Below are positions 16,542-64,000 of a DNA stretch of 64,000 nt, one piece after another. The notes under the pieces were generated by a model. That model ran no database searches. It had not been told where the DNA came from and was given only the letters and a program-made list of their open reading frames with translations. Position 1 is the stretch's first letter. The number at the start of each line of letters is the position of its first letter. Source of the DNA: Eledone cirrhosa (taxonomy: Eukaryota); assembly GCA_964016885.1 (NCBI GenBank), contig OZ024740.1:81530001-81594000 (forward strand), in the 5' to 3' direction. The translations under genes and the position numbers were made by a program.

Positions 16542-16731
16542 TATATATATATATATATATATATATATATATATATATATATATATATTTATATATATAT
16601 ATTATATATATATATATATATATATATATATATATATATATATATATATATATATATATATATATATATATATATATATATATATATATATATATATATA
16701 TATATATATATATATATATATATATATATAT
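16541..16731. repeat. (TA)n microsatellite (~190 bp) abutting the satellite array
   Basis: Directly visible. Confidence 0.97.
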
Positions 16732-19700
16732 GATAAAATGAGGAGAAAAATACTGCTGGTAGAACATGGATAACATGTAATAAAATAAGTCCCTCATCAG
16801 TGATTTGCCGACGATCATAGATATTTCATTGCATTAAAAATCATATACCTCACGTCGGTGCAATAATAACTAAATTAAGTTATTAGGACAATTAAAACGC
16901 GTAAAGCGAGTGAGACAGGAAAACAACAAAGAGTAGAGCTAACCGTAGAGGAAGGAAACAAGCTTCATAGTTATTCTGTTAGCGTAAGCTAGGTGAATAT
17001 ATGAGCGCTTAGAAAAAAGACCTTTCGCGAACGAATGCAATGTAAGAAAGAGAGAAATTGCTTTCGTTACGAACGGGGTGAAGTGAGGAGAGGAGAAACA
17101 GTGAGTGAGTGAGTGGAAGTGTGGGGAAGAGTTAACTGACACGACAGAGGGGGCGAAAGAAAGTAGGAGAAACAGAGAGAATGAGGAAGCAGTGAGAGAG
17201 AGAGAGAGAGAGAAAAAAAAACAGAATCGCAGTATAGGTAAATATATGTGATAAAATGGGGAGAAAAATACTGCTGGTAGCACATGGATAACATGTAATA
17301 AAATAAGTCCCTCATCAGAGATTTGCCGACGATCATAGATATTTCATTGCATTAAAAATCATATACCTCACGTCGGTGCAATAATAACTAAATTAAGTTA
17401 TTAGGACAATTAAAACGCGTATAGCGAGTGAGACAGGAAAACAACAAAGAGTAGAGCTAACCGTAGAGGAAGAAAACAAGCTTCATAGTTATTCTGTTAG
17501 CGTAAGCTAGGTGAATATATGAGCGCTTAGAAAAAAGACCTTTCGCGAACGAATGCAATGTAAGAAAGAGAGAAATTGCTTTCGTTACGAACGGGGTGAA
17601 GTGAGGAGGGGAGAAACAGTGAGTGAGTGAGTGGAAGTGTTAGGAAGAGCTAACTGACACGACAGAGGAGGCGAAAGAAAGTAGGAGAAACAGAGAGAAT
17701 GAGGGAGCAGTAAGACAGAGAGAGAAAAAAAAACAGAATCGCAGTATAGGTAAATATATGTGATAAAATGGGGAGAAAAATACTGCTGGTAGCACATGGA
17801 TAACATGTAATAAAATAAGTCCCTCATTTGCCGACGATCATAGATATTTCATTGCATTAAAAATCATATACCTCACGTCGGTGCAATAATAACTAAATTA
17901 AGTTATTAGGACAATTAAAACGCGTATAGCGAGTGAGACAGGAAAACAACAAAGAGTAGAGCTAACCGTAGAGGAAGGAAACAAGCTTCATAGTTATTCT
18001 GTTATTCTGAGCGCTTAGAAAAAAGACCTTTCGCGAACGAATGCAATGTAAGAAAGAGAGAAATTGCTTTCGTTACGAACGGGGTGAAGTGAGGAGAGGA
18101 GAAACAGTGAGTGAGTGAGTGGAAGTGTGAGGAAGAGTTAACTGACACGACAGAGGAGGCGAAAGAAAGTAGGAGAAAGACAGAGAATGAGGGAGCAGTA
18201 AGAGAGAGAGAGAAAAAAAACAGAATCGCAGTATAGGTAAATATATGTGATAAAATGGGGAGAAAAATACTGCTGGTAGCACATGGATAACATGTAATAA
18301 AATAAGTCCCTCATCAGTGATTTGCCGACGATCATAGATATTTCATTGCATTAAAAATCATATACCTCACGTCGGAGTAATAATAACTAAATTAAGTTAT
18401 TAGGACAATTAAAACGCGTAAAGCGAGTGAGACAGGAAAACAACAAAGAGTAGAGCTAACCGTAGAGGAAGGAAACAAGCTTCATAGTTATTCTTTTAGC
18501 GTAAACTAGGTGAATATATGAGCGCTTAGAAAAAAGACCTTTCGCGAACGAATGCAATGTAAGAAAGAGAGAAATTGCTTTCGTTACGAACGGGGTGAAG
18601 TGAGGAGAGGAGAAACAGTGAGTGAGTGAGTGGAAGTGTGAGGAAGAGTTAACTGACACGACAGAAGGGGCGAAAGAAAGTAGGAGAATCAGAGAGAATG
18701 AGGGAGCAGTAAGAGAGAGAGAGAGAAAAAAAAACAGAATCGCAGTATAGGTAAATATATGTGATAAAATAGGGAGAAAAATACTGCTGGTAGCACATGG
18801 ATAACATGTAATAAAATAAGTCCCTCATCAGTGATTTGCCGACGATCATAGATATTTCATTGCATTAAAATTCATATACCTCACGTCGGTGCAATAATAA
18901 CTAAATTAAGTTATTAGGACAATTAAAACGCGTAAAGCGAGTGAGACAGGAAAACAACAAAGAGTAGAGCTAACCGTAGAGGAAGGAAACAAGCTTCATA
19001 GTTATTCTGTTAGCGTAAGCTAGGTGAATATATGAGCGCTTAGAAAAAAGACCTTTCGCGAACGAATGTAATGTAAGAAAGAAAGAAATTGCTTTCGTTA
19101 CGAACGGGGTGAAGTGAGGAGAGGAGAAACAGTGAGTGAGTGAGTGGAAGTGTGGGGAAGAGTTAACTGACACGACAGAGGGGGCGAAAGAAAGTAGGAG
19201 AAACAGAGAGAATGAGGAAGCAGTGAGAGAGAGAGAGAGAGAAAAAAAAACAGAATCGCAGTATAGGTAAATATATGTGATAAAATGGGGAGAAAAATAC
19301 TGCTGGTAGCACATGGATAACATGTAATAAAATAAGTCCCTCATCAGTGATTTGCCGACGTTCATAGATATTTCATTGCATTAAAAATCATATACCTCAC
19401 GTCGGAGCAATAATAACTAAATTAAGTTATTAGGACAATTAAAACGCGTAAAGCGAGTGAGACAGGAAAACAACAAAGAGTAGAGCTAACCGTAGAGGAA
19501 GGAAACAAGCTTCATAGTTATTCTTTTAGCGTAAACTAGGTGAATATATGAGCGCTTAGAAAAAAGACCTTTCGCGAACGAATGCAATGTAAGAAAGAGA
19601 GAAATTGCTTTCGTTACGAACGGTGTGAAGTGAGGAGAGGAGAAACAGTGAGTGAGTGAGTGGAAGTGTGAGGAAGAGTTAACTGACACGACAGAAGGGG

Positions 19701-61700: not shown

Positions 61701-64000
61701 TTTTAGCGTAAACTAGGTGAATATATGAGCGCTTAGAAAAAAGACCTTTCGCGAACGAATGCAATGTAAGAAAGAGAGAAATTGCTTTCGTTACGAACGG
61801 GGTGAAGTGAGGAGAGGACAAACAGTGAGTGAGTGAGTGGAAGTGTGAGGAAGAGTTAACTGACACGACAGAAGGGGCGAAAGAAAGTAGGAGAATCAGA
61901 GAGAATGAGGGAGCAGTAAGAGAGAGAGAGAGAGAAAAAAAAAACAGAATCGCAGTATAGGTAAATATATGTGATAAAATAGGGAGAAAAATACTGCTGG
62001 TAGCACATGGATAACATGTAATAAAATAAGTCCCTCATCAGTGATTTGCCGACGATCATAGATATTTCATTGCATTAAAATTCATATACCTCACGTCGGT
62101 GCAATAATAACTAAATTAAGTTATTAGGACAATTAAAACGCGTAAAGCGAGTGAGACAGGAAAACAACAAAGAGTAGAGCTAACCGTATTGGAAGGAAAC
62201 AAGCTTCATAGTTATTCTGTTAGCGTAAGCTAGGTGAATATATGAGCGCTTAGAAAAAAGACCTTTCGCGAACGAATGCAATGTAAGAAAGAGAGAAATT
62301 GCTTTCGTTACGAACGGGGTGAAGTGAGGAGAGGAGACACAGTGAGTGAGTGAGTGGAAGTGTGGGGAAGAGTTAACTGACACGACAGAGGGGGCGAAAG
62401 AAAGTAGAAGAGACAGAGAGAATGAGGAAGCAGTGAGAGAGAGAGAGAGAGAAAAAAAAACAGAATCGCAGTATAAGTAAATATATGTGATAAAATGGGG
62501 AGAAAAATACTGCTGGTAGCACATGGATAACATGTAATAAAATAAGTCCCTCATCAGGGATTTGCCGACGATCATAGATATTTCATTGCATTAAAAATCA
62601 TATACCTCACGTCGGTGCAATAATAACTAAATTAAGTTATTAGGACAAGTAAAACGCGTATAGCGAGTGAGACAGGAAAACAACAAAGAGTAGAGCTAAC
62701 CGTAGAGGAAGGAAACAAGCTTCATAGTTATTCTGTTAGCGTAAGCTAGGTGAATATATGAGCGCTTAGAAAAAAGACCTTTCGCGAACGAATGCAATGT
62801 AAGAAAGAGAGAAATTGCTTTCGTTACGAACGGGGTGAAGTTAGGAGGCGAGAAACAGTGAGTGAGTGAGTGGAAGTGTGAGGAAGAGTTAACTGACACG
62901 ACAGAGGAGGCGAAAGAAAGTAGGAGAAACAGAGAGAATGAGGGAGCAGTAAGACAGAGAGAGAAAAAAAAACAGAATCGCAGTATAGGTAAATATATGT
63001 GATAAAATGGGGAGAAAAATACTGCTGGTAGCACATGGATAACATGTAATAAAATAAGTCCCTCATCAGGGATTTGCCGACGATCATAGATATTTCATTG
63101 CATTAAAAATCATATACCTCACGTCGGTGCAATAATAACTAAATTAAGTTATTAGGACAATTAAAACGCGTATAGCGAGTGAGACAGGAAAACAACAAAG
63201 AGTAGAGCTAACCGTAGAGGAAGGAAACAAGCTTCATAGTTATTCTGTTAGCGTAAGCTAGGTGAATATATGAGCGCTTAGAAAAAAGACCTTTCGCGAA
63301 CGAATGCAATGTAAGAAAGAGAGAAATTGCTTTCGTTACGAACGGGGTGAAGTGAGGAGAGGAGAAACAGTGAGTGAGTGAGTGGAAGTGTGAGGAAGAG
63401 TTAACTGACACGACAGCAGGGGCGAAAGAAAGTAGGAGAATCAGAGAGAATGAGGGAGCAGTAAGAGAGAGAGAGAGAAAAAAAAACAGAATCGCAGTAT
63501 AGGTAAATATATGTGATAAAATAGGGAGAAAAATACTGCTGGTAGCACATGGATAACATGTAATAAAATAAGTCCCTCATCAGTGATTTGCCGACGATCA
63601 TAGATATTTCATTGCATTAAAATTCATATACCTCACGTCGGTGCAATAATAACTAAATTAAGTTATTAGGACAATTAAAACGCGTAAAGCGAGTGAGACA
63701 GGAAAACAACAAAGAGTAGAGCTAACCGTAGAGGAAGGAAACAAGCTTCATAGTTATTCTGTTAGCGTAAGCTAGGTGAATATATGAGCGCTTAGAAAAA
63801 AGACCTTTCGCGAACGAATGCAATGTAAGAAAGAGAGAAATTGCTTTCGTTACGAACGGGGTGAAGTGAGGAGAGGAGAAACAGTGAGTGAGTGAGTGGA
63901 AGTGTGAGGAAGAGTTAACTGACACGACAGAGGAGACGAAAGAAAGTAGGAGAAAGAGAGAGAATGAGGGAGCAGTAAGAGAGAGAGAGAGAAAAATAAC
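16731..64000. repeat. Tandem satellite array, ~514-bp unit (roughly 495-520 bp), about 92 copies, runs to the window end
   Basis: The anchor ctaaccgtagaggaagg recurs at 16939, ...18456, 18970, 19486, 20000 ... 63208, 63722. Units differ by a few SNPs and by (AG)n/A-tract length. Nearly every unit has one AAGCTT, one ACGCGT, one TCGCGA and one GTTAAC site. Confidence 0.99.
16789..16860 (-). ncRNA. Hammerhead-core-like motif in the satellite unit (first copy; repeated in almost every unit)
   Basis: Minus strand: ...GCAAU-GAAA-UAUC-UA-UGAU cgucggcaa AUCA-CUGAUGA-GGGAC. Core nucleotides and a 4-bp helix I are present, but helix II is poor, so it is probably degenerate. Confidence 0.35.

Follow-up and report, generated by a model that had tools for sequence, protein, structure and literature searches.

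A satellite of Eledone cirrhosa as a probable tandem expansion of a dispersed retrozyme with a rearranged, predicted self-cleaving hammerhead

A tandem array and its dispersed relatives

The window analysed here, a stretch of 64,000 nucleotides of the Eledone cirrhosa genome (assembly GCA_964016885.1, contig OZ024740.1, positions 81,530,001 to 81,594,000), contains a head-to-tail satellite of ~514-bp units that, as a first-pass annotation of the DNA had noticed, begins at a (TA)n tract and runs to the window end (Table 1). It comprises 92 units in minus-strand sense, 487–520 bp long (mostly 512–520 bp), with a mean pairwise identity of 97.7%. Very probably, this array is the tandem expansion of a dispersed, non-autonomous retrozyme, likely of Naiad type, that carries a covarying, non-circular hammerhead predicted to cleave itself; about the fold and its Penelope-like origin we have little doubt.

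Downstream of the window, all seven stretches sampled were again array, up to G000:C1:81,696,760; given continuity across the unsampled gaps, the whole array would measure about 150 kb and hold about 290 units. Its last unit is truncated; beyond it come a TA run and a short inverted copy, and (TA)n thus stands at both ends.

Copies related to the unit occur well outside the array. Across the genome, a 37-nt stretch of the core is matched exactly 1,307 times, against none in a reversed control; 16 of these matches belong to 12 dispersed loci that precede the array on C1 and hold one to three copies each. The genome-wide count exceeds a rough sum of the array and the dispersed copies scaled from C1, and further arrays may therefore exist. 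The dispersed copies have a fixed 3' end, a TA run following 61–72 nt after A9 in 15/15 rows of family A from the 12 loci (some of these rows being internal copies), and are 5'-truncated at variable points in minus-strand sense. Inverted partner copies occur at L053/054, L055, L062 and L075–077, and also where the array ends. With a looser pattern, 633 matches from five further families were obtained, and with a second one 77 matches, mostly from a seventh family; both gave none in the control, and these family counts, being pattern-based, are lower bounds. The related families, too, have inverted partner copies, and among them there are two 3' end classes ~45 nt apart, with B/C/D-type copies ending mostly 31–48 or 81–89 nt after A9. 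Three loci (L090, L091, and L105) form an eighth family in which the spacing between GAAA and CUGAUGA is 3 nt shorter; L090 keeps long helices I, II, and III. Apart from low-complexity frames, the units hold no open reading frame (ORF).

This combination of an invariant 3' end next to (TA)n with truncated 5' ends and inverted pieces is the pattern of Penelope-like insertions, and the tract at the array start is likely the insertion target at the fixed 3' end of the element in minus-strand sense. Naiad and Neptune elements show tandem and inverted insertions, 30–40 bp tails, and a preference for (TA)n (Craig et al. 2021, PMC8557442), the last being a trait common to both clades, and a Penelope-like reverse transcriptase (RT) begins synthesis at two internal sites that lie beyond the hammerhead cut on its downstream side, which leaves a tail (Frangieh et al., PMC11167929). 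The unit itself combines (TA)n targeting, a fixed 3' end with a tail, and tandem plus inverted structure, as in Naiads, and non-coding tandem units with one hammerhead each plus dispersed copies, as in retrozymes without long terminal repeats (non-LTR retrozymes). The first-pass annotation had inferred that the array amplified from a hammerhead-bearing, possibly Penelope-derived element; the data support this origin, the element being non-autonomous and Penelope-like, dispersed, inserted at (TA)n, and equipped with a hammerhead core that is genuine.

A hammerhead with its helix II strand upstream

Each unit contains a rearranged hammerhead on the minus strand, for which the first unit serves as reference (Table 1). 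From 5' to 3', the elements are P6a, the P5 hairpin, the helix II 5' strand, P0a, UGA, the helix III 5' strand (ending at U16.1), and A17; then the helix I 5' strand, UUAA, the helix II 3' strand, GAAA, the helix III 3' strand, and UAUGAU; and finally P0b, one base, the helix I 3' strand, CUGAUGA, one base, and P6b. In the terms of Eckert et al. 2023 (PMC10085705), who named the blocks S, G, and C and confirmed cleavage for RNAs of type SGC and CSG, the order is S, G, C, and not the minimal type I topology proposed earlier.

Table 1. Features of the array and of the rearranged hammerhead, the latter in the first unit (window positions).
Feature	Position	Strand	Basis
(TA)n tract, 190 bp, at array start	16541..16731	none	array start; dispersed copies end likewise
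Tandem array of ~514-bp units of a probable non-coding Penelope-like element	16731..64000	minus	unit alignment
Whole rearranged hammerhead fold, repeated per unit	16789..16889	minus	covariation, core counts, RNAfold, family lines
P6 5' strand, GUCC, pairs with 16789–16792 and closes the motif	16886..16889	minus	covariation (A-U 17, G-C 13 at one pair); minimum free energy fold
P5 hairpin, 7–8 bp, second arm of the predicted four-way junction	16864..16885	minus	covariation set, RNAfold
Helix II 5' strand, from upstream, not from the bases after CUGAUGA	16859..16864	minus	C-G 20, U-A 12; family lines
P0 5' strand	16853..16858	minus	two-sided change in 5/6 pairs
UGA, non-bulge strand of the kink-turn motif	16850..16852	minus	identical in 7/7 family majority lines (unconstrained by the search pattern in family G alone)
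Helix III 5' strand, ending at U16.1	16845..16849	minus	covariation, family lines
A17 (16844); predicted cleavage between 16844 and 16843	16843..16844	minus	hammerhead numbering
Helix I 5' strand, UGAUUU	16838..16843	minus	two-sided change in 3/6 pairs
Helix II 3' strand, UUAA linker from helix I	16828..16833	minus	covariation, unit counts, family lines
G12-A13-A14-A15.1 and helix III 3' strand	16820..16827	minus	unit counts, family lines
UAU-GA-U, bulge strand of the kink-turn motif	16814..16819	minus	unit counts, family lines
P0 3' strand	16808..16813	minus	covariation, RNAfold
Helix I 3' strand, forming a pseudoknot with the loop of helix III	16801..16806	minus	covariation, family lines
CUGAUGA, catalytic-core strand, C3–A9	16794..16800	minus	unit counts
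P6 3' strand, GGAC	16789..16792	minus	covariation, RNAfold

We quantified the support for this fold in 34 distinct copies, all of which were kept, including four with a foreign upstream part. In these, 93.4% of cells are paired and 13 of the 34 pairs show two-sided change, compared with only 29–49% paired cells for slid partners. Because the copies are related, pairs were also counted by family: the seven family majority lines are diverged (35–65 of 70 positions identical), and 152 of their 154 pairs hold, compared with a mean of 16.9 out of 22 (range 10–22) when strands are mixed between families. There is compensatory change between families in helices I, II, III, P0, and P6. The search pattern fixed the core, the k-turn (kink-turn) bases, and helix III in families A–F and left helices I, II, P0, P5, and P6 free. 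Nothing in the pattern constrained the 5' half of family G, which nevertheless pairs, with a different helix III (AUGGU/ACCAU) and helix I (UCAACC/GGUUGA) in the same register. Of 30 family-G/H loci, only nine satisfy a filter for helices I and III when taken as single copies.

The core follows hammerhead rules in all seven families, which have CUGANGA, GAAA, the A15.1-U16.1 pair, and H17, with helices I, II, and III flanking the core and the partner of helix II displaced upstream. At H17, 30 of 56 copies have A, 20 have C, 5 have U, and 1 has G; all four bases occur at N7, and the A15.1-U16.1 pair persists although the remainder of helix III varies. A strict descriptor of the fold matches the unit and none of 10,000 shuffled strands.

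The k-turn sequence pattern (3-nt bulge, G-A, A-G, and U-U) is present in 7/7 families in the internal loop that joins helix III to P0, and a kink is predicted there; a standard k-turn has a 3-nt bulge, tandem G-A/A-G pairs, and flanking stems. RNAfold alone recovers the nested part of the unit, namely P6, P5, P0, and helix III. By analogy, P0 is likely the equivalent of the stem I–II interaction helix of SGC ribozymes. Family G (L081–L109), whose copies are old and decayed, lacks the P5 hairpin, and its junction would be three-way. An early idea, in which helix II was a single pair plus a hairpin after CUGANGA, was dropped because the same bases covary with the upstream P6; that hairpin occurs only in B/C/D.

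These results revise the hammerhead proposed in the first-pass annotation, whose minus-strand text we find at 16789–16858, with GAAA, U16.1/A17, and CUGAUGA intact in 91 of 92 units. Its type II reading, with a 4-bp helix I (UGAU/AUCA), gains no two-sided pair in the 34 copies and has one position mispaired in 13 of them, and the type II descriptor also arises in 19 of 10,000 shuffled strands. Its alternative, with a 6-bp helix I (UGAUUU/AAAUCA) and its own helix III, named the real helices, although no neighbouring unit is required to supply GAAA. Helix II, thought to be poor, is a good helix of 5–6 bp, but it pairs with the upstream strand.

Array growth, mobilization, and competing explanations

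We consider it likely that intact copies cleave after A17, as the fold predicts. Tandem transcripts would fold locally, P6 and P5 forming a four-way junction at the A9/10.1 step, and the k-turn would bend helix III so that P0 ties together the outer ends of helices I and II. The cut would release 514-nt monomers, the two ends of which could re-form the ribozyme and ligate into circles, and a Penelope-like RT/endonuclease supplied in trans would start ~115 nt beyond the cut and copy these RNAs into (TA)n. From a single insertion of this kind, the array likely then expanded to ~290 copies through unequal crossover or segmental duplication, while selection on the ribozyme was relaxed. That transcripts of this array are themselves processed is a prediction we regard as doubtful.

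Within the array, only 22 of 92 units have every helix intact and no listed variant is compensatory. The commonest variant, an A-A mismatch in helix I, is found in 33/92 units and in none of the 15 dispersed rows, where this strand was free of the search pattern. Identical unit pairs occur at lag 28 (11 pairs) and also at lags 4–7, with none at lags 1–2. These patterns point to multi-unit DNA duplication, not repeated retroposition, and judging by the sequences the array likely grew at the DNA level from one insertion under relaxed selection on the ribozyme. The array thereby offers an internal contrast between compensatory change among mobile families and pair-breaking change after DNA-level copying.

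Two further observations concern its surroundings. At the far end (L112:4760–5650), the truncated unit, TA run, and inverted piece are accompanied by a 17-nt flank duplication, and the end adjoins another fragment of a Neptune-like family also present in the window (11908–13459); co-mobilization with this element was considered and rejected, the shared 17 nt looking like the flank duplication. About 12 kb past the array (L113:6250–7050) lies a dimer of a sister family of 71% identity with the same fold, partly decayed.

The link to Naiads comes from elements of other species. Craig et al. describe Naiads as lacking a canonical hammerhead, with only ‘HHR_core’ and ‘HHR_half_core’ flags (PMC8557442). 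By eye, we recognized a non-circular hammerhead in 16 of 54 Naiad records of the supplement to that paper, 10 in the order of the unit and six in the CSG order, the records having been seen through term searches and two file parts rather than in a survey, with five further matches unparsed. The 10 are Naiad_Obim, Naiad_Ovul, three Acropora records and four others (these seven with different sequences), and Naiad_Esco, whose helix II is weak; the six CSG records are in the nematode part of File S5 and have a clean order by eye. In the 3' ends of Naiad_Obim and Naiad_Ovul (File S5), again by eye, helices I and II are 6 bp and helix III is 5 bp long, P0 is present, and the k-turn motif and the loop of P5 are those of the unit. 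No motif was seen by eye in the whole sequences or ends of Naiad_Adux, Naiad_Omin, and Naiad-1_Skow. Naiads (PMC8557442) and the unit share the (TA)n preference, tandem and inverted insertions, and a motif near the 3' end; unlike Naiads, the unit has no ORF. From these sequence likenesses, we hold Naiad ancestry of the unit to be quite probable.

Several results weigh against the retrozyme reading, first of all on the side of the mobilizer. In the E. cirrhosa genome, no ORF-bearing Naiad with the motif was found: the 127 Naiad-like RT matches have open frames of ≤ 298 aa and are broken remnants (resembling Naiad_Obim and Naiad_Ovul by eye), and the motif model R1 matched none of 19 Naiad-like RT loci. 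An ORF with an N-terminal GIY-YIG and a C-terminal RT domain linked to the motif, as expected of a Naiad Penelope-like element, is missing from the non-coding unit, and no motif was found beside the 19 RT remnants. In searches for an autonomous partner, two RT-motif patterns gave no matches and a third gave 22 vs 4 in the control, at broken loci; the aligned 3' regions of seven of these loci showed no clear motif, and inspection by eye revealed no Naiad-like ORF in the 1.5 kb preceding each of 30 family-G/H loci on the upstream side. The Naiad link is therefore based on consensus sequences of other species, compared by eye, and the mobilizer may belong to a different clade, Neptune for example; the genome does contain Neptune-like elements that carry a canonical type I hammerhead and share the (TA)n target. 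Moreover, cephalopod Naiads are called long inactive (PMC8557442), which fits poorly with young copies. As for the fold, the folding energy of the unit is unremarkable (z −1.7; family B, z −0.5), and the conservation of the core and helix III in families A–F is partly by construction, as both were fixed by the pattern. Individual family-G copies are decayed, with 55–72% paired. On the 34 copies, one shuffle measure was not passed (25 further pair types vs 30.9 in shuffled data) and another was weak (16/500). Finally, a fold in which A9 is separated from helix II does not conform to the block rule of PMC10085705.

Among the competing explanations, the one that survives best is that the fold is real but no longer catalytic, having been kept as a recognition structure for a retroelement protein. 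The extra arms and the k-turn suggest protein binding, self-cleavage is predicted only, and Naiads and most Chlamys are said to proliferate without canonical hammerheads (PMC8557442). The conservation pattern is, on the other hand, a catalytic one, with G at H17 in 1/56 copies, any base at N7, and A15.1-U16.1 kept, and the published SGC and CSG ribozymes do cleave (PMC10085705); we therefore judge this explanation unlikely. More improbable still is that neighbouring units, or a dimer, together build a canonical, circularly permuted hammerhead. Covariation cannot tell which unit gives each strand, and minimal Penelope hammerheads acting as dimers are cited in PMC10085705, but the bases after A9 form at most one pair with the bases before GAAA in any register, whereas the upstream strand forms 5–6 covarying pairs. 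The type II helix I is without covariation, and single-copy Naiad 3' ends hold the whole fold locally (by eye). Least credible, with almost no chance of being right, is an ordinary satellite with a chance hammerhead-like string: Rfam at gathering thresholds had no match in the whole window, pairs are broken by variants within the array, and variability in the ribozyme region is not significantly lower than elsewhere in the unit (11 alleles/103 nt vs 77/411, p = 0.07), but dispersed families with compensatory changes and the absence of the strict motif from all shuffled strands refute it for the element, while it is still a fair description of the present function of the array. The earlier caveat of a dead relic or chance motif accordingly fails as to chance and holds in part as to decay within the array; the dispersed related copies and the shuffling result are the opposite of what had been named as refuting a hammerhead origin.

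The left flank holds other elements. A canonical type I hammerhead with a TA-rich helix III lies at 7613–7667 on the minus strand; described before as intact, it has one helix II mismatch by eye. Its sequence is unrelated to that of the unit, and the kinship suggested between the two finds no backing in a comparison of unit and left flank (best E 0.086, no significant similarity). Three related type I hammerhead-like cores (CUGAYGA...GAAACUAGUA), one of them inverted, stand near TA tracts at ~5440–5480 (−), 6016 (+), and 6384 (+) and are likely another Penelope-like terminus. A broken Penelope-like ORF with a C-terminal GIY-YIG-like region, Neptune-like by eye, occupies 11908–13459 (+) and ~14585–14650 and ends in a type I hammerhead with a mutated core followed by (TA)n; Pfam gave no matches for four fragments, including this GIY-YIG-like region. 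Directly left of the TA tract, at ~16300–16540, is a common repeat like a short interspersed nuclear element (SINE), also present in L131, with a possible resemblance to octopus SINEs. Short open frames at 3597–4013 (−) and 572–1627 (+) resemble remnants of other transposable elements.

Comparison with known hammerheads and retrozymes

Hammerhead satellites are known from newt satellite 2, Sm-alpha, and pDo500. The circularly permuted hammerheads of types I, II, and III have the block orders CGS, GSC, or SCG without a pseudoknot, and the S, G, C order of the unit sets it outside them. We found no publication that describes a Penelope or Naiad hammerhead with a k-turn, and only Eckert et al. 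2023 for type SGC, in a literature search that mostly did not cover subscription journals.

A wider proposal, on which we are evenly divided, is that this four-block hammerhead, with a helix II strand supplied from upstream via a four-way junction and a k-turn folding helix III back, would be the hidden active ribozyme of invertebrate Naiads. Non-autonomous copies would seed satellites on the scale of a hundred kilobases, whose transcripts would be cut to unit-length, circularizable RNA, possibly tuned by a k-turn-binding host protein. If true, it would give non-circularly permuted hammerheads, found before in environmental RNA, a place in animal chromosomes. It would also overturn the assumed contiguity of CUGANGA with stem II and explain the reported absence of hammerheads from Naiads. 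A 105-nt construct with the exact predicted cut site makes the claim testable in one experiment.

Type-SGC hammerheads (HRIMA-1 and variants, PMC10085705) are the closest in architecture. Like them, the unit has the order S, G, CUGANGA with pseudoknotted stems, all core nucleotides, a short linker between stems I and II, and an extra helix that ties the outer ends of these stems, a role in which we infer P0 to be equivalent to the interaction helix. Eckert et al. assumed CUGAnGA to be contiguous with its stem II strand, an assumption from which the unit differs in that its helix II 5' strand lies upstream and block C is split by P6 and P5 at the A9/10.1 step; after A9 there is one possible pair and then P6. 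In the unit, both links to stem III are closed by the k-turn motif, and the same paper noted as a puzzle the case in which the I–II interaction helix joins stem III directly. Eckert et al. found none of their SGC RNAs in the genome of a known organism, whereas the unit sits in an animal genome. By inference, the unit would work like an SGC hammerhead while lacking one defining feature of the type, an unbroken block C.

Non-LTR retrozymes (bioRxiv 10.64898/2026.07.22.740005) resemble the unit in their genomic organization, being non-coding and tandem, from monomers to multimers, with one hammerhead each and a derivation from Penelope-like termini. They carry type I hammerheads, and type I models alone were used for the search in the preprint. 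The unit is set apart from these retrozymes by its 514-bp length, its non-circular fold in place of a type I hammerhead, and its expansion into a ~150-kb array.

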